Below are positions 153 through 25,767 of a stretch of 33,642 nucleotides of DNA, one piece after another. The notes under the pieces are model-generated. The model had not been told where the DNA came from, did not search any database, and saw nothing but the letters and a program-made list of their open reading frames with translations. The first letter of the stretch is position 1. Every line of letters begins with the position of its first letter. The DNA is from an uncultured bacterium. GTDB taxonomy: Bacteria > Cyanobacteriota > Vampirovibrionia > Gastranaerophilales > Gastranaerophilaceae. Position numbers and translations under genes: made by a program. The stretch spans positions 1 to 33,642 of the forward strand of contig CAMDZX010000001.1 in NCBI GenBank assembly GCA_945910925.1, given 5' to 3'.

Positions 153-3100
153 TCACGTGAAGATTTTGAAGGTCTTGTCAACGTTATCCTTAATAATCTG
201 TTTTATGGAATCAAGTTCTGTTGATATTGCATCCTGTTCGGCTTCAAGTTTATTCATCCTGATATCTATTACTTTTTCTTTTGCAGTGATATCAGCTTTT
301 TCTGATTCGTATTTTGAGAGCGCAACATTCTGTGCATCGGTATCATAAACTTGGAACACCTTGCTGACGTTCATTGCAAGTTTGGTTGCGTAGTTGAAAT
401 CTTGACCGTCAAGCGTATTGACTTCTGTGATAAAAAGCATATTATTTTGAAGTTTCGCATTGAGATAATTCTTGCTATCTTCCTTTTTGGTAGGATTGTT
501 TACGTTTTCATCATAAACCCAACCGTTTTCTGCAATCATCTTGAATATCGCATCAAAGTAATCCATACCACGAGATTCAAGACTTGCATAATATGTTTGT
601 AATTGTGTTTCTTTTTCTTGAATTTCTGCTTTTAAATTATTAATCAATGTTGTTAATTGACCTTTTATATCAGAAGGATCTGTTGGAAGAATATATGAAG
701 TCTTTGCATACGTAGACTTGCCTATAGTATTAGCTAGACCATAGACATTATTTCCTGCCTTAATATACGCTTCTAGTTGTTCATTACCATCACCTTCAGT
801 GAGTTTTTTTAAAGTTTCATTAGTTGAATCTTTTTCTGAGTTTAGCACCAATTCTGCGGATACAAAATTTCCACTCTCATCATACGTTGCTTTATATAAT
901 TTATAAAGTCCGTCTGTATCAACACCGTCATTATATTTAAATGTAACATTAATTTCTGAACACTTACCATTTTTATATGTAGTTTCTTTTGTGGCAGTAC
1001 CATTAGAAAGCGCATATGTTTCTATAGTAGTTGCAACTACGTTATATTGGGAAGTACACTTTACTCTTTTTGTTAGTGCAATTAGTATATCATACATATC
1101 TTCCTCTTGACCTTCTAAGGTTAAATCTTCATATAAATCTTTATATCTTTCATCCGTATCAAGCCCATTAGTTGTTAAATAGTCTATCAACTCTGTTCTG
1201 CCGTCCGGGTTTTGTGAATACTTAACGAGTAAGTTAAAAGAGTCTTCATTATATCCTGTTAAGTCATCTATATCGTCATGATTATCATCAACAAAATTTT
1301 GTTCATAAGCCAAACCTACAGTTGCTGGTGAAGGGTAGTTATCATAATTAACATCAAATTCTGTAATATAAGTTCCACCTTTACCATTTGTGAACACTTG
1401 TTCAGTATTAGTTTTATTGAGCAAACCTAATTCGGCATCTGTCATGAAATCAACAGTTTCACCACTTCCATTTTGACCTATGGTTTGTGCATATAATTTG
1501 TTGTTCGAATACCAGTCAATAACAGGAACTCCTGTGCCATCTATCATAGATTCAATATATGCAGAATAAAACGTCATAAATGTATCCATTACAGAAGATA
1601 TACTTACTGCAAATTCTTGATTGTCTGGCTTCGTATCTCTATAAGTAGATACACCATTTATAGAAGAAGCATTATCCTTAGATTTATATCCTTCATCATC
1701 ACCTCTACCCCTACCCCAGCTTGAAGTTAGAAGAGTATTATCATCTTTTCCGGATGCAATTGCAGAATCAACATTCTCTTTAATTGCTTCATAAGAGCCG
1801 GACGCATGTCCATTCGTTGCTTTCAGTAACTCTTTGTTATTCCCAAATTTTACCATTGTCATATAATATGCGAAATCAGCAGCTTCTACATTATATGGTA
1901 GTCCCTGATTTGCGGTCGAAACAGCTTGCTTAAAGCTGTTGACGAGAGGATCCAATGCTCCCATATCACCACTTATTCGATCATTAGATTTTGTTTTATA
2001 TGATTGTATAGTAACAAAATACTTTTTACCATCTTGTCCGTTATATAAATCAGACCAGGACAATTCTGTTGAATCTTTATAAGATTTTTTACCGTCAGTA
2101 CCAAGGTATACCCCCACAGCATTGCTATCATTCTCCTGATAAGTATCACTATATAGTTTATTAGCAGAAACGGTACCTAATTTAGATAATAATGTTTCTA
2201 AATACAAACCTGTATTATTAACATTATCCGTAGTATTATCAGTACCTCCCGGGTTGTTAAGCTTTAACAACGAAGCTATCCTTTGTGTAATACCACTTGT
2301 TATAGATTTCTCTTCATCATATTTATATGCTTCATTTGTTACTTTTGAAAATTCGGAATTATTATCTCCTGAAAGATTTACTTTAATAGGAGTATTTAAA
2401 TATAGTTCAAATTCTTTAAGATATTGTTGTGCAAGATTATAATTTCCATACAAAGATGCATCATCCAAGATTAAACTACCTTGAGAATACTTCATCACTC
2501 CGAAAGCGTCAGTATCAAATTCCTCGCCTTGAATTCCTATCACATCTTTATTTTTAGCTGTTTCTACATAATAATTTTGTGAGTCATATGTAGTGGGATT
2601 TTTACCGTATAAACTATCATATATGTTCTGTACAATTGTTTTATCTTCTTCTCTTATTAAGCCTAATTTAGACATTAAATCATATCTTATCTTATTTTTA
2701 TAATTGTAATCATTATAATTAGAGACAACCTTATACTCATAAGCATCAGACATTTTTGTGCCTGCAGTTCCGGGAATGATGTTATCACCTACCAGAACGC
2801 TGTCGTTATTAGGATCTAGACCGAAAACATTTCCTGTCTTATTGTATGTTGTATTACCATTATCATCGATACCTGAATATGCCGAAATCAATGTTGCAAG
2901 TTGTCTGTATGAAACTCCCGTATCTTTACCATCAAAAACAATATTGTTGTCATCAACAACAACTCTGCCTTGAGCATCTGTAACTATGTACGGAAGGGTT
3001 GCGTTTAACTCATTCGGTTTCATAAGAGAATCATAATCAATATCATTATAAGTAACACCCGAATCGCCTGACCATTTGAGAACTTTTTGATTCATCGCAT

Positions 3101-3239
3101 TATTGTATTCTGCTGCAACACGATTCATATCTCTTGATAATGCAGTCTTTCTGTTAGAAAGAGTCATCAAGTTCAAACCGATAGTATTTTTTCGGTTTTG
3201 TAAAGATAAAAATCTTACTTGTGATGCTGCCATTCCCAT
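153..3239 (-). CDS. Large uncharacterised protein (1028 aa) with helical heptad N- and C-termini flanking an ~850-aa N/D/Y/G/T-rich centre; no signal peptide
   Basis: Uninterrupted 3.1-kb ORF. The N-terminus (MGMAASQVRFLSLQNRKNTIGLNLMTLSNRKTALSRDMNRVAAEYNNAMNQ) and C-terminus (KLEAEQDAISTELDSIKQIIKDNVDKTFKIFT) look amphipathic-helical. An AGGGA SD-like element lies about 11 nt upstream. I recognise no catalytic or named family motif. Confidence 0.8.
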   Translation of the reverse strand: MGMAASQVRFLSLQNRKNTIGLNLMTLSNRKTALSRDMNRVAAEYNNAMNQKVLKWSGDSGVTYNDIDYDSLMKPNELNATLPYIVTDAQGRVVVDDNNIVFDGKDTGVSYRQLATLISAYSGIDDNGNTTYNKTGNVFGLDPNNDSVLVGDNIIPGTAGTKMSDAYEYKVVSNYNDYNYKNKIRYDLMSKLGLIREEDKTIVQNIYDSLYGKNPTTYDSQNYYVETAKNKDVIGIQGEEFDTDAFGVMKYSQGSLILDDASLYGNYNLAQQYLKEFELYLNTPIKVNLSGDNNSEFSKVTNEAYKYDEEKSITSGITQRIASLLKLNNPGGTDNTTDNVNNTGLYLETLLSKLGTVSANKLYSDTYQENDSNAVGVYLGTDGKKSYKDSTELSWSDLYNGQDGKKYFVTIQSYKTKSNDRISGDMGALDPLVNSFKQAVSTANQGLPYNVEAADFAYYMTMVKFGNNKELLKATNGHASGSYEAIKENVDSAIASGKDDNTLLTSSWGRGRGDDEGYKSKDNASSINGVSTYRDTKPDNQEFAVSISSVMDTFMTFYSAYIESMIDGTGVPVIDWYSNNKLYAQTIGQNGSGETVDFMTDAELGLLNKTNTEQVFTNGKGGTYITEFDVNYDNYPSPATVGLAYEQNFVDDNHDDIDDLTGYNEDSFNLLVKYSQNPDGRTELIDYLTTNGLDTDERYKDLYEDLTLEGQEEDMYDILIALTKRVKCTSQYNVVATTIETYALSNGTATKETTYKNGKCSEINVTFKYNDGVDTDGLYKLYKATYDESGNFVSAELVLNSEKDSTNETLKKLTEGDGNEQLEAYIKAGNNVYGLANTIGKSTYAKTSYILPTDPSDIKGQLTTLINNLKAEIQEKETQLQTYYASLESRGMDYFDAIFKMIAENGWVYDENVNNPTKKEDSKNYLNAKLQNNMLFITEVNTLDGQDFNYATKLAMNVSKVFQVYDTDAQNVALSKYESEKADITAKEKVIDIRMNKLEAEQDAISTELDSIKQIIKDNVDKTFKIFT

Positions 3240-3589: not shown

Positions 3590-4231
3590 TTATGCATTCA
3601 AGCCGTAATGTGCCATTGAGTCTTTTGCAACTTGAGCAAGTCTTTGTTTTGCTGCTTGTGCTCTTTCGTCTGCCATTGTTAATCGAGTATCGTTTACTGC
3701 AATTTCTGCCTGCATATCTGCATCCTTTTCTGCTATCGGAGCAGTTTGTGCATCTTCTTTTGCTTCCAAATCTTCAAGATCTGCTTCTTTCAATTGTTCA
3801 AGAATTGTATTTAATGCAGCTTGAACTTGTGCAATAATTGCTGCTTGTTGAGATAGTATGGATGATTTTTGTTCTGTTTGTGTAGTTGCAGCTGTTGATG
3901 GATTTATGTTACTAATATCCGCTCCTGCTGCTGCAGCAATCCCTTGAATAAGTTGATTTGAAATACCATTTGCTGCAAATAGACTTCCAATAGATACTTC
4001 ATTTAGCATATTAGTTGCACTCAATCTATTGAGAGATGCTGTTAACTGACTGCTCAACCTTGTATATTTAGATTCTAATTGTGTTTTCTTTTTGCTGAAT
4101 AATTTTTCGATGTTACCAATACGCTTCGTATATAAGTCGTGCATATTGTTAAGACGGACACCTTTGTGTTCAAGCACGGTCTTCTTTTGAATCGCCCGTT
4201 GATATTCAAATTGCATTAATAGTAAGCCCAT
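3590..4231 (-). CDS. Small coiled-coil protein (213 aa), a possible minimal relative of the adjacent 1028-aa protein
   Basis: Intact ORF with GAGG 10 nt upstream of the ATG and its own terminator. It has a helical N-terminus (MGLLLMQFEYQRAIQKKTVLEHKGVRLNNMHDLYTKRIGNIEKLF), an A/Q/S/T-rich middle and a charged helical C-terminus (EKDADMQAEIAVNDTRLTMADERAQAAKQRLAQVAKDSMAHYGLNA). Confidence 0.7.
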   Translation of the reverse strand: MGLLLMQFEYQRAIQKKTVLEHKGVRLNNMHDLYTKRIGNIEKLFSKKKTQLESKYTRLSSQLTASLNRLSATNMLNEVSIGSLFAANGISNQLIQGIAAAAGADISNINPSTAATTQTEQKSSILSQQAAIIAQVQAALNTILEQLKEADLEDLEAKEDAQTAPIAEKDADMQAEIAVNDTRLTMADERAQAAKQRLAQVAKDSMAHYGLNA

Positions 4232-12630: not shown

Positions 12631-14058
12631 ATGATTAATAAAATAAAACAATTTTATAATGAACATCCCGAAAGATTTTATCTTATTCTTTTGGGAATTT
12701 TTGCGTTTATCTTTTTGGCTGCAGGCATGTGGTATTATCCGCTTGTGGATGTCGATGAAACAAGATATGCCGTTATGTCAAGAGATTTAATCGGGCATAA
12801 TTGGAATTTCTTGATGCTTAACGGAGTGCCGTTTATAGAAAAACCTCCGCTTTATTTTTGGCTGACAGCGTTATCCATAAAACTATTCGGATTTCATGAA
12901 TGGGCAATAAGAGTTCCTACTTTGATTTTGTCAGTTATTACCGTTTATTTTACATATTACGTCGGAAAAGTTGTTAAAAGCCCTAAATTCGGATTCTATG
13001 CCGCATCAATTCTTATGATTAACGCATATTTTGTTATGCTTACACGTGTAGCAATTATAGATATGGTATTCACAGCTTTTTTAACATGGACTATATACTG
13101 TGGATTTTTAACTGATTTTGTAAGAGAAAAATATAAAAAATACTTGTGGTTTGCTTTTTATGTTTGTATGTCTTTTGCCTTTCTTGCTAAAGGTCTGCTG
13201 GCAATTGTATTTCCTTGTATGATAATCGGACTTCACAGAATATTAACAAAATCTGTAAAAGAGATTTTCAGACCCGTTAATATAATTCCCGGAGTATTGG
13301 TATTTCTGCTAATAAACTTACCTTGGCACTTTGCAATGTATAAACAGTATGGATATGAATTTATCTGGGTTTATTTTATTTTACATCACTTTGAAAGACT
13401 TGTTGATGCGGATTCTCTCGGGAAAACACGACCTTTCTTATACTTTATACCCGTGTTTTTCATAGGGTTCCTGCCTTGGTCAATAAACTTTATAGGCAGT
13501 ATTGTTGATTTCTTCAAAAATAAATTGTTCAAGAATCCTGTGATGCTGTTTTTTTGCTTGTATTTTGTTGTAATTTTTGGAATTTTTAGTTTTGCAAGCG
13601 GTAAATTACCAACTTATGTTTTGCCTGCTGTGCCACCGGCAGCGTTTTTAACTGCAAATTTTATATATGACAGAGATAAGAATTGGTTTAAAATACCTAT
13701 ATATTTTGGTTTCGTTGGTGTAATAGTTGCTGTGGTATTACTAAAAACAGTTGTATACACAGGCGGAATGAGTGAGTTGGTTGAATTTTCAAAACAAGCA
13801 CAGGCTTCCGAATATCACTTGATTACGTACGACATGCCTGTTAAGCCTTCAATTTTTCTTCATTATATAAAAGATAATGCGGATTTAATATTAGAAGATA
13901 ACTTATCAGAACTAAAAAAGGCAGTCACAAAAAATCCTAAATCTATGATTATTGTAAAAAGAAAAAATATGACTAATTCAACAGCAAAAATATTTATAAA
14001 AGATAACTTTTCTCTTATACACACAAGTAAGAAATACGAACTTTACAGAAATAATTAG
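12631..14058 (+). CDS. GT-C membrane glycosyltransferase (ArnT/PMT_2-like)
   Basis: Polytopic membrane protein. It has a DVDETRYAVMSRDL first-loop motif (DExRYA, as in the ArnT family) and a soluble C-terminal domain. Its start codon immediately follows the GT2 stop. Confidence 0.75.
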   Translation: MINKIKQFYNEHPERFYLILLGIFAFIFLAAGMWYYPLVDVDETRYAVMSRDLIGHNWNFLMLNGVPFIEKPPLYFWLTALSIKLFGFHEWAIRVPTLILSVITVYFTYYVGKVVKSPKFGFYAASILMINAYFVMLTRVAIIDMVFTAFLTWTIYCGFLTDFVREKYKKYLWFAFYVCMSFAFLAKGLLAIVFPCMIIGLHRILTKSVKEIFRPVNIIPGVLVFLLINLPWHFAMYKQYGYEFIWVYFILHHFERLVDADSLGKTRPFLYFIPVFFIGFLPWSINFIGSIVDFFKNKLFKNPVMLFFCLYFVVIFGIFSFASGKLPTYVLPAVPPAAFLTANFIYDRDKNWFKIPIYFGFVGVIVAVVLLKTVVYTGGMSELVEFSKQAQASEYHLITYDMPVKPSIFLHYIKDNADLILEDNLSELKKAVTKNPKSMIIVKRKNMTNSTAKIFIKDNFSLIHTSKKYELYRNN

Positions 14059-14936
14059 AAATTACTACGTAATTTTTTTAGTAATTTTTCACTATACGGA
14101 GAGCCTTCTTTTGCAAAATCATAATAATAATTGTGTACATTAGATGAAGGTATTGTTAAAATATTGTACATACGTTCCTTAATATTATTTGGTATAATTT
14201 GTTTGTCCGTCCCCACACACTTATCGCCTGAGTATAGAAATATTGTATTAACAGGTGTATCATTATTTGTTGTCATTATTAAGACAGGTTCACCATTTTT
14301 TTGAGTATGATAAGTTAAATTTTTACAATCTTTACCTTTTTCATATATAGTTACATTATACTTTTTAGAATCAACTTTTGTTCGTCTGTAACATTTAACA
14401 AGATATTTTTCTTCGTTATTAAGAATTTCAAGATTATTTAAAAGATTATCACCCTTATAGGCTTTCATATCTACAAGAATATATTTCCCATTAACCATTT
14501 GCTCTTTTTTAGAAATAATACGTTGTATTATCTTCGCACCATCAAGAACTACTGTTTCACGATATTTAAATTTACCTTCATATCTGTCAAAATTAATTCT
14601 AACTTTTCCATTTTTTAAACGTACTTGCGACTGAGAAGTTAATTTATTTCCAATAAGTGGCTGATATTTACGCAATTTGTCCAACGAACCTGCTATATTA
14701 CCCTTACGGCGAATTAAAAATTCAGGCAAAAAAAGAATAGCCGCAAATATTACTCCTGAAGCAATTGTAGTTATAAAGTTATTTTTAATAGCACTATCAT
14801 TACTTCTTTTTTTCTCAAATACATCTTCTTTACGTTCTGTATTTAATGGTTGATTTACTACAGCTTGAGGTTTTACCGTTTGATTTTTTTCTGCTGCCCT
14901 TAATATAAAACTGTTACTGTATCCATCAATTGTCAT
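14055..14936 (-). CDS. Hypothetical single-pass membrane protein (293 aa)
   Basis: ORF with one TM segment (FITTIASGVIFAAILFLPEFLI) and a K/N-rich C-terminal domain; I recognise no motif. I prefer the ATG at 14936, preceded by AAGGTGA, over the GTG at 14954. Its stop codon overlaps the stop of the convergent GT-C gene. Confidence 0.55.
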   Translation of the reverse strand: MTIDGYSNSFILRAAEKNQTVKPQAVVNQPLNTERKEDVFEKKRSNDSAIKNNFITTIASGVIFAAILFLPEFLIRRKGNIAGSLDKLRKYQPLIGNKLTSQSQVRLKNGKVRINFDRYEGKFKYRETVVLDGAKIIQRIISKKEQMVNGKYILVDMKAYKGDNLLNNLEILNNEEKYLVKCYRRTKVDSKKYNVTIYEKGKDCKNLTYHTQKNGEPVLIMTTNNDTPVNTIFLYSGDKCVGTDKQIIPNNIKERMYNILTIPSSNVHNYYYDFAKEGSPYSEKLLKKLRSNF

Positions 14937-15078
14937 AAATTCACCTTGTTCCACTTATTATAAAAAACTAAAAAATATTTTTTGCCGATAAATAAACAAT
15001 AATTTACAATTTAGTTTGAAAATTCACGTGTTTATGATATTATCAGTAAAAAAGTATGACATATTTAAAGGAGTTTTT

Positions 15079-17557: not shown

Positions 17558-17589
17558 AAAAAAGCATCCGTTTAATAGGATGCTTTTTT
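17558..17589. terminator. Bidirectional rho-independent terminator between convergent accC and the GGDEF/HD-GYP gene
   Basis: AAAAAAGCATCC-GTTTAATA-GGATGCTTTTTT is a perfect stem flanked by an A-run and a T-run, so it works on both strands. Confidence 0.75.
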
Positions 17590-17593
17590 GTTA

Positions 17594-19486
17594 TTATGTT
17601 GATAAATCATTAATTATGTTTATAAACTCATCAGCAAGACGAGAACTCCATTTTTTATCAATATCAGACTTTATCACTTCAATTGCAGCGTCCTTAGACA
17701 TAGCCTTTCTGTACGGTCTTGGCTGAATTAAGGCGAAATATGCATCAATTATTAGCACCATTTGAGATTCTAATGGAATATTTTCTCCCGACAATTTATT
17801 TGGATATCCTGTTCCGTCCCAATTTTCATGATGTTTTTCAATTATAGGAATAATGTCTTGAACAACGGATATCGGTTGCAAAATCTCTTTTGCTGCAATT
17901 ATCGGATGTTGTTTTATAACATTTCTTTCTTCATCTGTTAAAGGCGTTCTCTTTTGTAACAGTTCTTTCGGAAGCATAAGATTCCCGATATCATATAATA
18001 ATACCGCTATCTTTAACCTGTCAGTATCCTCTTTGGATAAATCAAAACGTTTTGCAAGAACCGATGCAACCATCATTTTTGATTTCGTTAAACCATCTTT
18101 ATGGTTTGGATTGTATATCTCCGAAAGTGAATCAGAGATTGAATACAAAGCTTCTCTATCAGGTGACAGCATTTGCAATCTTTCGTTTAAACGAGTATAC
18201 ATACTCTCATCAAGAGGAATTCGGTGTTTGGATATAAGTTCAATAAACGTATCAACCGCAATATCTTGCCAAGACTCTTTGTTATGTAATTCGGCAAGGG
18301 TAACCCTATTTCGACCGTTTTTCTTAGAAATATACATCGCTTGATCTGTCAATTCCAATAATTCCTGAATATTATCAGAATGTTCGAGATATGTTGCAAC
18401 GCCAATACTTGCAGTCACATGCCCGATAGTATCTATCTTACGTGATTCAATAGCTTTTCTTATACGTTCCGCAGCAATCATACCCCCTTCCGAATCAACT
18501 CCCGGAAGCAGGATATTAAATTCTTCTCCACCCATTCGAGCAACGACATCAATAGAACGAGCATTCGATTTTAACGCAGATGCGACAGTTCTGATTGCAA
18601 CATCCCCAAAAGCATGACCATATTTATCGTTAATCTGTTTAAGATGGTCTAAATCAATCCCGACAATAGTGAATTTTTGGTTTTGACGTTGCGCACGGAG
18701 TAGTTCTTTTTGCAAAAATTCTTCAAAATAGCGCCTGTTATTTAAACCTGTTAAACTGTCCGTAACGGCTTGTTCCTTAACTGTTTGGAAAAGCTCGGCA
18801 ATGGTAATTGCAAGTTCAATTTGCTTAGAAAACAAGTCTAAAAATGTAAGTTCGGATTCCGTCACCTCTGCGCGTGAAGAAAAAACTACCAACGACCCGA
18901 AATGTGTTCCGTTTTGAGTAAGCGGTACTACAAGATACGAACGCCAACCCGTTGATTTTATTAGTTTTATTCGCTTAACTTTATCAATATCAGGGAACAT
19001 ATTTTCTAAGCATTCATCAAGATTACTGCTTTGGTATATCCTATTTTCATTGACACATTTATCACGTTCTTCATTGTGTACATAATTAATGCGGCTCTCA
19101 TATAAAGAGGTTGGTAAAATTGACGAGAATTTGTCAATAAAATCACAAGATGCATCTGCCATTATATTTATATATTCACCTTCATCATCTTGCTTTACTT
19201 GTATTATTGCACTATATAAATAGCCTAACTCACCCTGTAAGCTATTGACTATTGAATCCAAAACATTTGTCAAAGGCTCAGATGAATTCATCATTTGCCA
19301 TATATGTTGTACGGTAAGCAAACGTCTGTTAGCAAGTTGAAGCTCTTGCGTACGTTCTTCTATTTCGGCTTCAAGGCGAAGATTTTTTTCATATACTTCC
19401 AAAAAATCTTGTTTTGATGAATATATATTAGATTCTACATTATTAACTTGTTTTCTGAATTCTTCAAATTTCTTCCAAAAATTCAT
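17594..19486 (-). CDS. Coiled-coil/GAF - GGDEF - HD-GYP hybrid c-di-GMP turnover or sensor protein
   Basis: GGDEF domain with RMGGEEF (nt 18518-18532) and an RSID I-site 5 residues upstream. C-terminal HD-GYP region with KQHP, EKHHENWDGTGYP and IIDAY. LLYDIGN replaces the HDxGK motif (Y at nt 17993-17995), and KSKMMV sits where HSxRV is expected. I prefer the ATG at 19486, preceded by GAGGTGG. Confidence 0.85.
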   Translation of the reverse strand: MNFWKKFEEFRKQVNNVESNIYSSKQDFLEVYEKNLRLEAEIEERTQELQLANRRLLTVQHIWQMMNSSEPLTNVLDSIVNSLQGELGYLYSAIIQVKQDDEGEYINIMADASCDFIDKFSSILPTSLYESRINYVHNEERDKCVNENRIYQSSNLDECLENMFPDIDKVKRIKLIKSTGWRSYLVVPLTQNGTHFGSLVVFSSRAEVTESELTFLDLFSKQIELAITIAELFQTVKEQAVTDSLTGLNNRRYFEEFLQKELLRAQRQNQKFTIVGIDLDHLKQINDKYGHAFGDVAIRTVASALKSNARSIDVVARMGGEEFNILLPGVDSEGGMIAAERIRKAIESRKIDTIGHVTASIGVATYLEHSDNIQELLELTDQAMYISKKNGRNRVTLAELHNKESWQDIAVDTFIELISKHRIPLDESMYTRLNERLQMLSPDREALYSISDSLSEIYNPNHKDGLTKSKMMVASVLAKRFDLSKEDTDRLKIAVLLYDIGNLMLPKELLQKRTPLTDEERNVIKQHPIIAAKEILQPISVVQDIIPIIEKHHENWDGTGYPNKLSGENIPLESQMVLIIDAYFALIQPRPYRKAMSKDAAIEVIKSDIDKKWSSRLADEFINIINDLST

Positions 19487-19502
19487 AACCACCTCAGGGG
19501 TT

Positions 19503-19531
19503 ATTATACAATACATTCTCGGTTTAGTAAA
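19503..19531 (-). promoter_or_regulatory. Possible sigma-70-type promoter (TTTACT-N17-TATAAT) in the spacer between the giant gene and the GGDEF/HD-GYP gene
   Basis: Hexamers at 19526-19531 and 19503-19508 (minus strand) with a 17-nt spacer. The implied transcript would start almost at the SD, so it is uncertain whether this promoter is used. Confidence 0.3.
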
Positions 19532-19536
19532 CAAAT

Positions 19537-22500
19537 TTATTCATCAATACGACTGACTCCTAAATATCCGGAACTGTTTTTACCGGCATTCGAGAGTAAT
19601 TGGTTACTATATTCCTGAAATTCATCATATTTTTTATTAAATTTTTCTCTTTCTGCAAGAGCAGGTGAATATTCAGGAATATTAAGGCTATTTACTATAC
19701 TATAACTGTTATTAATATATTTAAGCGGTTCTTGTTTCGAAATTAAATCTTCATTAACCATTCTTCCTACTTTACTGTTAGCCTGCGTTATAAATTCCAA
19801 TAGAAGTACATTCTTAGGAGTTCCCGGAGTCTGAGAAATTATTTTCTTCACCTCATCGAGAGTTTTTAAGTAAATCTTAACGGATTTTTTATCATCCATT
19901 TTTTGTGTTTTTTCAATAATATTTTTCTTTGCAATATTGATTTTCTTTATATACTGCTTATCAGAAATTGTATCATCTTGTGCAATATTATCAATTTCTT
20001 CTTTTACGATTGTTGAAAGATTATTTGTTGTTCCAAGAATTTTTACAACATCATCAGTGATTTTTTTAGCATTATCAAAATCGACAAGTTCATTTTGCGC
20101 CTTTAAGTATTTATCAGCGAGTCCGAGTTTATCAATAAATATTATTGCCGTTGACTTGTCGTCATTCCCGGATAGGGAACCAACAATATAATCTACGACT
20201 TTATTATCATCCATTGTCAGAATTGCTCCTGTATCTTTATCTTGCAATTCAGTTTTGATATCTTTGAAATTACTTGCGACGAGCGGAGCATTTCCTGTAG
20301 CAACCGCACTCATTAAGAGTTCTTGCATTTCAACCAATTGTGCACAAACAATCAGAGAACCTATATTTTCGGTTTTTGTAGTTAATTCTGTCAGAGAGTC
20401 AGAAGATGTTTTAGGGTCAGAAGAATGTATAGGACTATCTTTTGAATATAATATCAAACAACTGTTAAGTAACTCGACCGGTGACATTAAATTGTGATAT
20501 CTTCTATAATCTTTGTAAAATTTCTCTTTAGCTTCATAAGCCCGCTGAGGATTATATTTTGATTGTTTAGCCGTAATGGCATTGTTTACGGTATTTTTAA
20601 CTTTATTTGTTACAGCTTGTCTGTATTCAGGTTTGATATTGCCATACACAAATTCCTGTGTATCATCTTGAATTTTGGCTATAACCATATTAAAATCATC
20701 TTTAAAATATTCTTTATCTTCACCTTCTAAATTTTGAATAGCATTTGCATCAGCAGAAAGTTGAAGAATATTATTTTCCAGTTTATTCATATAAGTTCTT
20801 TTAGTCATACTGAAAGATTTTTTAGGAATTGAATATTTTTTGAATATATTATTCAAATTATCCATTTCCACAGTTAAATCTAAGGTTGGATTATTATCTT
20901 TCATTTCCTCTCTTATCCAATTGTTGGCATCATTTTTAACCTTATTACGATACTTTTCTTGTATGGTTGAATTTATAATTGTATCCAGTGTTAAGTTTAA
21001 AAGTTTATTATTTTCAACAATTTGTTTTTTCATTTCATCTTCAGGATTTATTTTCTTTAATACATCCATTTCGGTAATCAATCCTGAAGCTGCATTTTTG
21101 TAATCTGCACCTGTTGCATTTTCATCAAGCTCAAGAATATTTTGAGCTGACATTAATGATTTTTTTATGGAAGAATCATCCATTTTTGATGACAGAAACA
21201 TACCTGCAAGTATATTTATTTTATTTGCAGATTTCGTTGACGGTATTTTATCATCAGGGATTAAGTTAATTTCTTTTATCAATTTCTCTGTAAGGTGTGT
21301 TGTTTTGATAGAATCCTTCATTGCATTAATATTTGCAATATAATCGATTACACTTTCATCTATACTTTGAAGTTTTTTATCAAAATCTTTTTCTCCAATA
21401 TAATCAACCTTAGGGTAGGCAGGAAAATACCCTCCTGCTTTTATATTTGCATCTTTATACTTATTAAACATTTTATCGTATGTTAACGTTATAAATGAGT
21501 TTGAAAGCTCACTATACAACTCATCAAATGTACGATTCTGAGTATAAATTATACCCTGGTTATGCTTATATAACTTATTGTATTTATATGCAGGTTTTGT
21601 AGGAGAAAAATCGTAATCATTAAAGACTTCTTCTTGATAAATACTGTTCTTAACTAAATTATTAATTTGTTTATCCGCACCTTTATACCTTTTAAGTATA
21701 TCAAAACCTGAACAATTTTTAATTCCGATATCTTCGTCTTTTAAATCTGATGTTTCTTTATTGAATTCCTCAGTTGTCATATCTTGAAGTCTTCTGTATA
21801 TTTTTACAAAATCTGCATTTGTTTCCGGATTGTATTTTTTATCAATATAATTAGCAATTGCGGTAAATTTTGTAGACTTATTATTGACATCATCTTCATT
21901 TATATAAAGAGCATCTTCAAGACTGTTAGTCAGATTTTCTCTAATTTCTTGTTTGGCTAATCGAGCATTGTCCGAATCAGGAATAACTGAATCAAATTTT
22001 TTTAATGTTTTATTAACCATAAATCCTATTGTATTTTTCAGACTGCCGTCAAAATCTTTTTTCTCATCTTTTGAATACATTGCCACATTTTTAACAATTG
22101 CAGCTTTTTGTTTTTCATCAATTTTTATACCATATTTATTCAGCGCATTATCAATAATTGGTATAATTTGATTAGTCTTAGAATCTAGAGTGTATGAATA
22201 TAGGATTTCCGGTTCTTTTGCAAAAGAATAATTAAAATAACTTTTGGCAATTTTATTTCTGGTTTTATATGATTTCCCTAACTCTTTAACATTTTTTACT
22301 TTTGATAGAGTTTTCCATTCACTATCATCAGGGTATGATGCCTGAAATGCTGCTTTTTCACATATAACTTTTACATAGTTATCATCAGGGAGCTTCTCAT
22401 AATCCTCCTGTGAATCTATACCCTTATGAAAAGGGGTAGTATATAAAGCTTCATTAAAAGATTTAAGTTTCTTATTGTAATTATTTACACTTGTTTGATT

Positions 22501-25500
22501 TTTTATTATTGCTGCTTTTATTTCTTCTGAAGTCATATCAGAGGCTATTCTAATTAAATGATTGTAATGACATGCATTTGAATGAAAGATGCTATCTTTA
22601 ATTTCTAATGCTATTGATTTTGTTTTTCCATCATTACCTGTTATAATCACATCCGACATTATAGGGAATTTATGTTCATATTCTTGTCCTACAAGTTTCT
22701 TTAATTGTTTATTTTCCGGAGATGATGCAGAGATATAACCCGATTTATAACGTAAATCATCAACATAATTTCCGTTTCTATATTTGTCATTGGTAATATA
22801 TCCTGTTTCACCTCCTCTGTTATCAGAATAATCTGTATGAGTAACACCTTCAGAATCAACCCAAACATTATCTTTCTCGGATGCCCCCCAAGTATTATCA
22901 TGGTATAAAACATCTTTACCGTTTATAGAAGATATTTCCGCAATATATTGAGCATGTCCGCCCATTCTATTATGAAAGACTGACGAACCTGAAATCCCGG
23001 AGTGTTCACCTGTTTTAATTTTTGAAACAGCTTTATCAAGATTATTTGTAACTCGATATCTGTTATCAGTAATCATTTCAAGAATTTTAATTTCTTGTGG
23101 AGTATGTAAACCGGAGCCGGTTTGGCAAGTCCAATACTCTCCTGATTCTATACCACTTTTTCTTGCATGTTCTTCCAACGGTTGTCTAATATCTGATAAA
23201 ACAAATGCCAGTTCTTTATTAGTTTCCGAATACATTTTGTTAATAGATTTATCAATATGTTTTAGTGTTTCTTTTTCCTGCTTTGTAAGTTTATATAGAG
23301 AGGAGTCGGAAATTTTTCCTTGACGACCTGAGAACTCATCTTCGGAACGAATTTTATCTATTCGATTAAATCTGTTTTGTAACAACTTAAGTTCGTTTGT
23401 TGGTATAATATCTCCCTGTTTTTCCATACGCTTTATTATTTCATAATGCGTTTCCGGGCAATTCAGAATATTATGTTGATTGTCAATGATTGTCATTGAA
23501 CTGCGAATATTTGTTATATTTTCAGATACTGAGTTAAAAAGGTTTCCCCATTCTTGTAAGAGTGCAAGGGTTTCTTCCGTTGAATAATTTTCAGGTAAAC
23601 CGTTTGCTGTTTTATAATTTTTTAGAATATTTTGTTTTACTTCATCATCCGGATTAATTACAGCATCTGCGACAATACCAAACATATCAGCACATGCCTG
23701 TAATTGATCTTTATGACCTAATTTATTAAAAATCTCCGTATATTGTTTTTCATTCGGATTATTACTAAGAATTTGTTCAAATTTTTCATATTCTTTTTTT
23801 ATTTTGGTTTTATTAGTAGAATCCATCCCTAAGGTATATGCAGAACCCGTCCAAATAGCTTTATTTCCATCTTTGAGTCCCGATTTAATATTCTGTACTT
23901 CTGACAATAATACATCTTTTCTGCTGCCTAAGCCTAATCCATGATACATACTATCCAAAAAAGTTGTTATTGATGAATTTACCTCGTTTCTTTTATTGGT
24001 TAATTCTGTAAGAACTTCTTGTTTATTCGGATTTATACCATATACATCCGAAAAATGTTTAATATATCTTTCATCACCTGTTTTTTTAATATGGTTAATG
24101 GTTTTATCTATATTACTAACAAGGAGAGTCTCAGTATCAGGAACATCATACTTTATCATTTTGTCATGTTGATAGTCTTTGTCATTTAACGCTGTCAGAT
24201 TCGCAAAACGATAAGCAGCTGCAGCATTATATAGCATTCTTGCCTTTGATATTGGTTTACCTTGGGATGAGTATGGATGAATTTTATCTTCCAGGGTTGC
24301 TGCTTCTTCTATCAAACTTGTTATTTCTGATATGTTTTTATCCAGAGTTTCGGTATCAACCTTATCTTTATTTGAATCAATAATAAACGCCTTTACTTTA
24401 TTCTCTTTCATTGTTTTTTCTTCATTAGGAATAAAGTGATATTTTGCCTTATCATTTTTAATATTAGCTATATCAGAAGAACTTTTTGAATATAAAGCTC
24501 TAACAGAATTAAACGTAGAATGTACTTCTTTTTCTGTGGCAGCAGGTATAACTTGTGAAATATTTGATATTAAAAGATTATTAATCTTATTTAGATGTTC
24601 TAAATCTTTTTCATGGTTTCGTCTTATATCATCTCTTTTCATCCCTGTTCGAATTTGACTTGCTTTAGCTTTTCCTATCTCCTCTTTTGCAAGTAAAAGA
24701 CCTTGATAATAGCGATGTTTGTCTGCAAAATTCTTATCATCAATTGGATTCATTATTGAATTATCTCTCAAAACATCAAAGTTTTCCGCATCAAAGGGAA
24801 TATATACAGCTTCGGCTTTATTATCAGCCCCATACATATTTGCAATATTCATCCATTGTGTAGTTGAGGCATCAACTATCCTATATCCCTTATTTTGTGC
24901 ATCTTTAAAGTCAACTTGGACTTTATCTACAGGAATTTTAACACCTTCCCCTAATCGGGTTTTATCATAAACCATTACATGCGGAGTTGCATCAAGTTCT
25001 GACATAATACTGTCAACATAATCAGGTTTATACTCATAGGATGTCAGTTTTCGCGTAATTGATATTGCAGCACACATACCATGATGCTTTTGATTTATTG
25101 CTTTTGTATTAGGAATTTTAGAATCTTTTGTATCAACAACAAGGTCATTAATCATCTCTGCAAAGATAAGCGTTTTCTTATCTTTTAACTCAGGATTGAT
25201 TTCATAATCAGGACTAAGGAAGTAATCGAGCCGGTTTAGAATATATTTCTTTTGCTTCGTTGGCGTAGCTGACGAAGCAATAAAGTAATCAAGATTACTT
25301 TCAACACGCTTGATATTAGGGTCTTTCTCATCTTCAAGCTGAGTTTTATCAAGTTGAGCAAGTATATTTTTTCTGGATTCTAAAATTGATTTTTCATCCT
25401 CAGAAAGAGGTTTATTTTCTTTAAAAACACGTTTAAATTCAGGAGAAAGCTTTTCTTGCACAATTGGATTTGAAGCTGCAATTGACTTTTCGGCGGCAGT

Positions 25501-25767
25501 TTTAAGTTTTTCTTTCCAATTATTTTGCGGTTCTTTTCCTAAATCAATTGAGGTTCCATATTTCAAATTGTCAGCGACATCAAGTAAAAATTTGACATTT
25601 GATTCCCCTGATTCTTTTGATAAATTATCAATAGCATTATTTATTCTTGTCTTATTATTTTCCGTAAGAGAATAATTATTATCTTGTTTTAGTTGTTGAA
25701 CTGCATTTCTATCTTCTCTGCGACTTTTAAATGCAGGATTTATTGAGTGTAAAAAATTCAAGTTCAT
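19537..25767 (-). CDS. Giant protein (2076 aa) with putative split papain-like (clan CA, C1-like) cysteine peptidase motifs; the rest is K/N/D/E-rich and helical
   Basis: Uninterrupted 6.2-kb ORF with AAAAGGA upstream. It carries NQKHHGMCAAIS (Q226, C232, TGT at nt 25072-25074). It also carries RMGGHAQYIAEISSINGKDVLYHDNTWG...GGETGYI (H938 at nt 22954-22956, N958, W960). There is no signal peptide and no TM segment. Confidence 0.8.
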   Translation of the reverse strand: MNLNFLHSINPAFKSRREDRNAVQQLKQDNNYSLTENNKTRINNAIDNLSKESGESNVKFLLDVADNLKYGTSIDLGKEPQNNWKEKLKTAAEKSIAASNPIVQEKLSPEFKRVFKENKPLSEDEKSILESRKNILAQLDKTQLEDEKDPNIKRVESNLDYFIASSATPTKQKKYILNRLDYFLSPDYEINPELKDKKTLIFAEMINDLVVDTKDSKIPNTKAINQKHHGMCAAISITRKLTSYEYKPDYVDSIMSELDATPHVMVYDKTRLGEGVKIPVDKVQVDFKDAQNKGYRIVDASTTQWMNIANMYGADNKAEAVYIPFDAENFDVLRDNSIMNPIDDKNFADKHRYYQGLLLAKEEIGKAKASQIRTGMKRDDIRRNHEKDLEHLNKINNLLISNISQVIPAATEKEVHSTFNSVRALYSKSSSDIANIKNDKAKYHFIPNEEKTMKENKVKAFIIDSNKDKVDTETLDKNISEITSLIEEAATLEDKIHPYSSQGKPISKARMLYNAAAAYRFANLTALNDKDYQHDKMIKYDVPDTETLLVSNIDKTINHIKKTGDERYIKHFSDVYGINPNKQEVLTELTNKRNEVNSSITTFLDSMYHGLGLGSRKDVLLSEVQNIKSGLKDGNKAIWTGSAYTLGMDSTNKTKIKKEYEKFEQILSNNPNEKQYTEIFNKLGHKDQLQACADMFGIVADAVINPDDEVKQNILKNYKTANGLPENYSTEETLALLQEWGNLFNSVSENITNIRSSMTIIDNQHNILNCPETHYEIIKRMEKQGDIIPTNELKLLQNRFNRIDKIRSEDEFSGRQGKISDSSLYKLTKQEKETLKHIDKSINKMYSETNKELAFVLSDIRQPLEEHARKSGIESGEYWTCQTGSGLHTPQEIKILEMITDNRYRVTNNLDKAVSKIKTGEHSGISGSSVFHNRMGGHAQYIAEISSINGKDVLYHDNTWGASEKDNVWVDSEGVTHTDYSDNRGGETGYITNDKYRNGNYVDDLRYKSGYISASSPENKQLKKLVGQEYEHKFPIMSDVIITGNDGKTKSIALEIKDSIFHSNACHYNHLIRIASDMTSEEIKAAIIKNQTSVNNYNKKLKSFNEALYTTPFHKGIDSQEDYEKLPDDNYVKVICEKAAFQASYPDDSEWKTLSKVKNVKELGKSYKTRNKIAKSYFNYSFAKEPEILYSYTLDSKTNQIIPIIDNALNKYGIKIDEKQKAAIVKNVAMYSKDEKKDFDGSLKNTIGFMVNKTLKKFDSVIPDSDNARLAKQEIRENLTNSLEDALYINEDDVNNKSTKFTAIANYIDKKYNPETNADFVKIYRRLQDMTTEEFNKETSDLKDEDIGIKNCSGFDILKRYKGADKQINNLVKNSIYQEEVFNDYDFSPTKPAYKYNKLYKHNQGIIYTQNRTFDELYSELSNSFITLTYDKMFNKYKDANIKAGGYFPAYPKVDYIGEKDFDKKLQSIDESVIDYIANINAMKDSIKTTHLTEKLIKEINLIPDDKIPSTKSANKINILAGMFLSSKMDDSSIKKSLMSAQNILELDENATGADYKNAASGLITEMDVLKKINPEDEMKKQIVENNKLLNLTLDTIINSTIQEKYRNKVKNDANNWIREEMKDNNPTLDLTVEMDNLNNIFKKYSIPKKSFSMTKRTYMNKLENNILQLSADANAIQNLEGEDKEYFKDDFNMVIAKIQDDTQEFVYGNIKPEYRQAVTNKVKNTVNNAITAKQSKYNPQRAYEAKEKFYKDYRRYHNLMSPVELLNSCLILYSKDSPIHSSDPKTSSDSLTELTTKTENIGSLIVCAQLVEMQELLMSAVATGNAPLVASNFKDIKTELQDKDTGAILTMDDNKVVDYIVGSLSGNDDKSTAIIFIDKLGLADKYLKAQNELVDFDNAKKITDDVVKILGTTNNLSTIVKEEIDNIAQDDTISDKQYIKKINIAKKNIIEKTQKMDDKKSVKIYLKTLDEVKKIISQTPGTPKNVLLLEFITQANSKVGRMVNEDLISKQEPLKYINNSYSIVNSLNIPEYSPALAEREKFNKKYDEFQEYSNQLLSNAGKNSSGYLGVSRIDE

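Follow-up and report, generated by a model that had tools for sequence, protein, structure and literature searches.

The window analysed here is a 33,642-nucleotide stretch of contig CAMDZX010000001.1 (GenBank assembly GCA_945910925.1, positions 1 to 33,642 of the forward strand) from an uncultured bacterium of the Gastranaerophilaceae. A 6.2-kb gene on its reverse strand encodes a protein of 2076 residues, called the giant protein below, which is probably a giant cysteine hydrolase, one of an orphan family whose catalytic domain is of papain type (clan CA) and whose activity is most likely that of a peptidase or isopeptidase. The orphan family is new and has been seen only in Melainabacteria, the closest non-photosynthetic relatives of cyanobacteria, which are common in the gut, of which almost none have been cultured and whose specific biology is largely uncharted. 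Kept across these lineages, gut organisms included, with an invariant centre and no relatives detected elsewhere, the gene makes a strong candidate for a core function specific to the lineage. A bolder proposal, which we would currently expect to fail somewhat more readily than to hold, is that these proteins form a new clan-CA family (MEROPS), a ~240-kDa regulated, lineage-defining cysteine protease or isopeptidase machine of Melainabacteria/Vampirovibrionia with the largest universal intradomain insertion known for the papain fold, in which helical insertion and tail would act as scaffold in a lineage-specific core cell-biological task. If this were true, clan CA would gain a new family, and the papain fold could be assembled across a 530-residue insertion. 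It would also help to annotate dark-matter proteins (profile methods miss this giant family completely) and to understand how accessory scaffolds regulate cysteine proteases.

Conservation of a proposed split active site

The gene is preceded by an AAGGA ribosome-binding-like motif 8 nt 5' of its ATG. Its product has a high content of K, N, D, E and I, with 9 cysteines in total. As had been stated in a preliminary description of this DNA, neither a signal peptide (the N-terminus is not hydrophobic) nor a transmembrane (TM)-like segment (highest 19-residue Kyte-Doolittle mean 1.54) was found in the giant protein, which by its sequence looks cytoplasmic. Gene, regions and proposed active-site codons were assigned as follows, using the alignments and AlphaFold2 (AF2) models described below (pLDDT, predicted local distance difference test).

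19537..25767 (-), giant gene: single 2076-codon frame with ATG start, 236.9-kDa product of pI 6.25
25321..25767 (-), N-terminal helical region, residues 1-149: AF2 helices 16-144, invariant R17, L26, Y70, W84 and L88, couplings to the His strand
24733..25320 (-), N-lobe (papain L-domain-like), residues 150-345: Gln226-x5-Cys232, Cys helix 229-244, conserved KGYRIVDAS..QWMN, conservation peak
25090..25092 (-), Gln226 codon: proposed oxyanion-hole residue, conserved in 200/200, codon verified
25072..25074 (-), Cys232 codon: proposed nucleophile at the modelled N-terminus of helix 229-244, conserved in 201/201, codon verified
23143..24732 (-), all-helical insertion, residues 346-875 (~530 aa): AF2 helices 345-875, pLDDT mostly >85, in all family members
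22630..23142 (-), C-lobe (papain R-domain-like beta-sheet), residues 876-1046: His938, Asp957-Asn958-x-Trp960-Gly961, GGxxGYIT (985-992), conservation peak
22954..22956 (-), His938 codon: proposed general base at the start of strand 937-948, conserved in 202/202, codon verified
22885..22899 (-), Asp957-Asn958-Thr959-Trp960-Gly961: proposed third catalytic residue and shielding Trp, conserved, just past strand 951-956, couplings 209-959 and 249-959
19537..22629 (-), C-terminal extension, residues 1047-2076 and stop: family-wide conserved patches, no domain recognised

Two distant segments carry the motifs. Residues 225-236 (NQKHHGMCAAIS) contain Q226 and C232, and residues 936-961 (GGHAQYIAEISSINGKDVLYHDNTWG) contain H938, D957, N958, W960 and G961, with GGETGYI following at residues 985-991. 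The preliminary description had placed a Gln exactly six residues before the Cys, and a His 706 residues after it, followed by N-T-W-G and GGETGYI; inspection of the codons confirmed each of these positions and the C232 to H938 spacing, and Q226-x5-C232 proved to be invariant in homologues.

Conservation was taken as the test of chance, since Q-x5-C by itself is unremarkable (across all six reading frames of the window it matches 71 times, H-x(14-22)-N-[ST]-W-G once). A family set of 202 sequences was assembled by merging three alignments on the query columns. Counted over non-gap positions, Q226 was present in 200/200, C232 in 201/201, and H938, N958 and W960 each in 202/202; D957 and G961 were near-invariant (200/202 each). 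Among the 21 most divergent members (19-26% identity to the query) only 22 columns of the whole protein were invariant, and Q226, G230, C232, H938, N958 and W960 belong to them. Windowed conservation reached its maxima at residues 160-320 and 920-1000, that is, in both motif-bearing segments, and no Cys is conserved within the C-lobe itself. The preliminary description had made its reading depend on conservation of the Gln, Cys, His and Asn positions, which held throughout the family, and the catalytic centre is convincing.

The frequency of Q-x5-C, together with the K/N-rich, low-complexity-looking composition of the giant protein, would suit a chance likeness or annotation artefact, in which a long AT-rich open reading frame (ORF) merely happened to carry short papain-like motifs. 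This explanation is refuted by the homologue searches and the motif conservation, and we give it practically no weight: full-length homologues that share its architecture fall into ~165 clusters (50% identity), species-representative genomes yielded 139 related loci, the motif residues do not vary, and the AF2 models are confident.

Predicted structure and possible contact between the lobes

Residues 1-1100 were modelled with AF2 from a 37-sequence alignment (mean pLDDT 88.6; predicted template-modelling score 0.83). The model puts C232 at the N-terminal end of helix 229-244; H938 begins strand 937-948, N958 falls two residues past strand 951-956, and G989-Y990-I991 form a further strand. The predicted placement of Cys232, His938 and Asn958 is the papain arrangement. 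Judged from the same model, helices 229-244, 247-258 and 297-309 would be the counterparts of the three L-domain helices, the invariant G294-Y295 that of papain Gly66-Tyr67, and helix 910-919, strand 925-929, the His strand and the Asn strand those of R-domain elements; the central strand (925-929) is separated from the His strand by ~8 residues in the giant protein versus ~25 in papain. Residues 345-875 are helical throughout the model. The helical insert of ~600 residues given in the preliminary description was therefore right in character and too long, the insertion spanning ~530 residues (346-875); its K/N/D/E-rich tail likewise kept its composition and was shortened from ~1100 to ~1030 residues.

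Under the proposed mechanism the catalytic domain would be built from two distant stretches, residues ~1-345 (N-terminal helices and L-domain-like lobe) and ~876-1046 (R-domain-like lobe). Cys232, at the N-terminus of helix 229-244, would be the nucleophile, and Gln226, six residues before it, would form the oxyanion hole. His938 on strand 937-948 would serve as general base, oriented by Asn958 at the end of the next strand, with a possible contribution from Asp957, and Trp960 would shield the Asn958/His938 site. GGxxGYIT (985-992) would form the following strand, like WGENGYI in papain. The 530-residue helical insertion would leave the domain between the lobes, at the equivalent of the papain L-to-R crossover, and together with the ~1000-residue C-terminal extension could provide a scaffold that binds substrate or gates the cleft; roles of the helical parts as substrate scaffold, gate or oligomerisation surface are all conceivable. 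We infer the Cys-His geometry, catalytic activity and peptidase chemistry of the giant protein.

The C-lobe was also modelled alone (residues 876-1046, AF2 pLDDT 83.9), giving the same strands as in the 1-1100 model, and was compared with the PDB using Foldseek. Among the top 50 matches, 41 were clan-CA peptidases or phytochelatin synthase, including 4 staphopains, 10 entries for cathepsin B, 13 for cathepsin S, further cathepsins (K, X, L-like), 5 for procerain/calotropain, ginger protease, Der p 1, 1 calpain and 1 phytochelatin synthase. Another 5 were NlpC/P60-like or type VI secretion (amidase-type) effector entries and 4 were unrelated folds. The best match was staphopain 1y4h_A (E 0.033, probability 0.87, 120 aligned columns). 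The weight of this model-based result lies in the enrichment for clan CA and not in any single match. An assignment of the segments to unrelated non-peptidase folds, which the preliminary description had named as grounds for abandoning its reading, did not emerge, the C-lobe matches being almost only papain-fold cysteine peptidases.

The same list admits a different chemistry. On the same papain-like core the giant protein might act as a transglutaminase or cross-linker, an amidase (NlpC/P60-type cell-wall hydrolase), a deamidase, an acyltransferase or a phytochelatin-synthase-like transpeptidase, using a triad of Cys232, His938 and either Asp957 or Asn958. The papain-like superfold hosts these chemistries on the same core of Cys helix and His/Asp(Asn) hairpin; NlpC/P60 proteins, type VI amidase effectors and phytochelatin synthase are all among the C-lobe matches; no peptidase family profile matches the protein (see below); and D957, about as conserved as N958 (200/202), might complete the triad, as Asp does in Cys-His-Asp enzymes. 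Against such a chemistry, the Gln six residues before the Cys, the N-x-W-G past the His strand and the G-Y-I strand are together the signature of families C1, C2 and C47, and the top-ranked structures are peptidases (staphopain, cathepsins, calpain); for the cell-wall amidase variant a signal peptide or TM segment would also be expected, and neither was found. We regard a non-peptidase chemistry as unlikely, at about one chance in several. The C1/C2/C47-like motifs and the nature of the top structural matches both favour peptidase or isopeptidase chemistry.

Contact between the lobes was assessed by mean-field direct coupling analysis (DCA) of N-lobe columns 150-345 and C-lobe columns 876-1046 in 200 sequences (effective number, Meff, 158). 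The top intra-lobe pairs (926-942, 929-936, 926-956 and 940-955) agree with the predicted sheet. The strongest inter-lobe pairs were 241-896 (2.70, rank 3 overall), 209-959 (1.77), 242-902 (1.67), 211-945 (1.63) and 246-902 (1.49); with equally long distal control regions the N-lobe reached best scores of 1.43 (1290-1460) and 1.21 (1780-1950). Four to five lobe-lobe couplings thus exceed the distal controls, with partners in the Cys helix and at residue 959, between N958 and W960. Helix 247-258 is linked with the strands of His and Asn by a second cluster of pairs (254-942, 254-945, 254-937, 249-959 and 255-955; ranks 16-55 of 33,516 inter-lobe pairs). Residues 1-149 may be counted as part of the catalytic module because the N-terminal helix 36-60 is coupled to the His strand (40-944, 2.50; 37-944, 1.70). 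Taken with conservation, the AF2 placement and the C-lobe Foldseek matches, these couplings support the split papain-type centre of the preliminary description as to fold and active-site type.

The insertion contains a possible internal duplication of residues 540-602 and 611-673 (window 23749-24150 (-)), for which hhalign of the family sub-alignments gave a probability of 88.8% (E 2.4e-6). This sequence comparison suggests that a helical unit of ~62 residues was tandemly duplicated within the insertion; no further internal repeats were found in the giant protein, tail included. Also inside the insertion, residues 799-832 (23272-23373 (-)) carry a strongly conserved linear motif, R-F-x-K-I-D-K-x-R-S-x-D-E-F-S-S-R-Q-G-K-I-S-D-P-S-L-Y-K, where the model is non-helical and of low confidence (pLDDT 58 over residues 811-820). 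Its conservation is limited to the Gastranaerophilales-like half of the family, and it could be a docking, regulatory or processing site. A pseudo-substrate role for this loop was considered and rejected, given that no coevolution between it and the lobes was detected and only about half of the family conserves it. Conserved patches of the C-terminal extension comprise K1138, F1178, Y1180, F1182, K1184, D1309, P1314, L1881 and G1882; residues 1047-2076 gave no Pfam or PDB-sequence match.

Profile searches and relation to known cysteine peptidases

Several results weigh against a papain-type hydrolase. Pfam searches with the full giant protein (E<=10) returned no Peptidase_C1 (PF00112), Peptidase_C1_2 (PF03051), C2, C47, C19, I29 or other match, and the same search with 28 concatenated N-lobe and C-lobe sequences (E<=10) returned no relevant match; the clan-CA profile search proposed in the preliminary description was thus negative for both. 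NCBIfam gave no relevant family for the full protein, and PDB sequences gave no peptidase to any of three queries (the protein itself, the lobe profile, the full-length profile). Alignment of the lobe profile by hhalign with approximate sequences of papain, cathepsin L and cathepsin B gave a probability of 0.4%; the same run, with these approximate sequences, paired NQKxHGMCAAIS (NQKHHGMCAAIS) with NQGSCGSCWAFS. Searched with Foldseek against PDB and BFVD, the whole 1100-residue model gave only long-helix matches (IP3 receptor, tape-measure, SMC-like), because the search is dominated by the helical insertion and a domain in two pieces cannot be aligned locally. The C-lobe matches have TM scores of ~0.25-0.35, none of them individually significant, and the loop bearing Q226 (221-230) is the weakest part of the model (pLDDT 57). 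In the DCA, the N-lobe paired with insertion residues 450-620 as a further control reached a maximum of 1.71, and the signal for lobe contact is supportive but modest. Finally, the giant gene has no conserved neighbour, hence no functional hint from its surroundings.

Some of these points would suit a non-catalytic scaffold, in which the C-lobe is papain-like, Cys232 lies outside its active site, and the invariant Q/C and H/N/W residues have structural, metal-binding or interaction roles. The low confidence of the Q226 loop, the failure of Foldseek to recover a complete papain domain with the 1100-residue model, and the ~85% of the giant protein that is helical or uncharacterised could all be read in this way. 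Opposed to it, the four to five residues that never change in 202 sequences, some only 19% identical, are exactly those of a clan-CA active site, and pseudoenzymes normally lose such residues; the C-lobe lacks a conserved Cys, so that the R-domain would otherwise have no nucleophile; C232 stands at a helix N-cap in the model; and the lobe-lobe coevolution extends to the His/Asn hairpin. A scaffold of this kind is judged improbable, clearly more so than a non-peptidase chemistry.

For the preferred reading, a papain-type cysteine hydrolase, the results bear on classification as follows. The chain order is Cys, His, Asn/Asp with a Gln a few residues before the Cys, as in clan CA, and it is invariant in the 202 homologues; in the AF2 prediction the Cys lies at a helix N-terminus and the His and Asn on adjacent strands, again as in clan CA. 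Members of family C1 have a contiguous domain of ~220-450 residues with Cys and His ~130-300 residues apart; here the spacing is 706, with no I29 domain and no hydrophobic N-terminus. 'Papain-type' therefore holds for fold and motif (clan CA) and not as membership of family C1. The giant protein is no detectable member of C1, C1B, C2, C47 or C19, its likeness being one of fold and active-site motifs. The PADLOC models of anti-phage defence proteins matched it with 0 families at E<=1, and with Pfam, NCBIfam and PDB sequences also negative, the earlier view that no described family fits still stands. Compact relatives without the insertion were sought by phmmer (residues 140-1050 against 1.84 billion representatives) and by profile search, and only the giant family or fragments of it were found.

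Staphopains (MEROPS C47, clan CA) supplied the best C-lobe structural match (1y4h_A; also 8oig, 1pxv and 1x9y). They have a minimal papain fold with a Gln/Cys/His/Asn active site, and are secreted enzymes of ~174 residues with a propeptide and ~100 residues from Cys to His. In contrast, the giant protein has no signal peptide, a spacing of 706, a length of 2076 residues and no sequence-profile match to them. With papain and the cathepsins (C1A), which account for most C-lobe Foldseek matches, and with bleomycin hydrolase/PepC (C1B) it shares N-Q-x4-C followed by a helix, G-H-A on a strand, N-[ST]-W-G and a G-Y-I strand; it differs from them in lacking the I29 propeptide, signal peptide and disulfide cysteines and in having a 530-residue insertion between the lobes. 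The calpain core (C2) is comparable as a cytoplasmic multidomain clan-CA enzyme whose two subdomains must meet, and 1qxp_A is among the C-lobe matches (E 0.14). Calpains carry the motifs Q-x5-C, G-H-A-Y and N-P-W-G with a Cys-His spacing of ~160 residues; unlike them, the giant protein has no Pfam Peptidase_C2 match and no EF-hand or C2-like domains.

Ubiquitin-specific proteases (USPs; deubiquitinases of family C19) are eukaryotic, have a fingers-palm-thumb elaboration, and carry Asn rather than Gln before the Cys. Compared with them, the giant protein has no match to the USP Cys-box or His-box, and its insertion is longer and universal in the family. Large insertions inside the clan-CA catalytic domain of USPs were described by Ye et al. 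2009 (pmid 19734957), as cited in PMC11239673, where an 'insertion deleted' USP28 structure, 6HEI, is also listed; the insert between the Cys and His elements of USP25/USP28 is helical. A split clan-CA domain is therefore not unprecedented. We know of no such precedent in bacteria, in a papain/staphopain-like core, or of this size in every member of a family.

Distribution and genomic context

A word-indexed search of 5.8 billion proteins returned 191 homologues; the best 120 of these are nearly all 1920-2190 residues long and all are hypothetical or nameless products. An exhaustive phmmer search (residues 140-1050 against the 1.84 billion representatives) returned 165 clusters (50% identity), each a giant protein (1800-2480 residues) or a fragment of one, and full-length homologues range from 1800 to 2500 residues. 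Scanning one genome per GTDB species gave 139 related loci. In the 78 that were kept, the named taxa are Melainabacteria, Gastranaerophilales, 'Vampirovibrio' and 'Cyanobacteria bacterium UBA...', with one exception ('uncultured Brachyspira sp.'); where a sample name reveals its source, this is gut, rumen or faeces. At 23% identity, a divergent cluster contains OGH95288.1 of Candidatus Melainabacteria bacterium GWA2_34_9, judging by its name a groundwater metagenome-assembled genome (MAG), and the family is therefore not confined to gut lineages. That small gut genomes and a groundwater Melainabacteria MAG have both kept the gene speaks for an active protein under strong selection.

Window genes around the giant gene are of housekeeping type (efp, accB/accC, fmt, an AsmA/YhdP-like gene, glgC, an M16 peptidase and a GGDEF-HD-GYP gene). 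Those with coordinates of interest are:

17558-17589, bidirectional terminator-like hairpin, following the GGDEF-HD-GYP gene
17594-19534 (-), GAF-GGDEF-HD-GYP (HD_5) cyclic-di-GMP protein, starting 2 nt past the giant-gene stop
28940-32221 (+), AsmA/YhdP-like protein of 1093 residues

No terminator-like site was found between the giant gene and the GGDEF-HD-GYP gene, and the two may be co-transcribed in this genome; the pair did not recur in the two other contexts for which downstream genes were read. Clustering of the flanking ORFs of the 78 loci (mainly upstream flanks) gave no family present in more than 20 loci, and the neighbours of the giant gene differ between genomes. An operon or partner hypothesis was rejected on these grounds, the commonest neighbour families occurring in <=20/78 loci. 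That the giant gene stands alone argues against toxin-immunity and operon-encoded machine models.

Two recurrent neighbours were recorded, at about 11.5 kb in locus coordinates. ftsZ lies downstream of the giant gene in 18/78 loci, on the opposite strand in 17 of those, and a small Cys-rich protein of ~91 residues is encoded directly upstream on the opposite strand in 20/78 loci. Both adjacencies probably reflect clade-level synteny rather than functional linkage. Elsewhere in the window, the ORFs at 153-3239 (-), 3590-4231 (-) and 14055-14954 (-) encode proteins of 1028, 213 and 299 residues, none with a Pfam match. Paralogy of the 1028-residue orphan with the giant protein was rejected, as the two have no similarity. 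Consistent with a Melainabacteria origin of the contig, the AsmA/YhdP-like protein points to a diderm envelope that uses bridge-type lipid transport.

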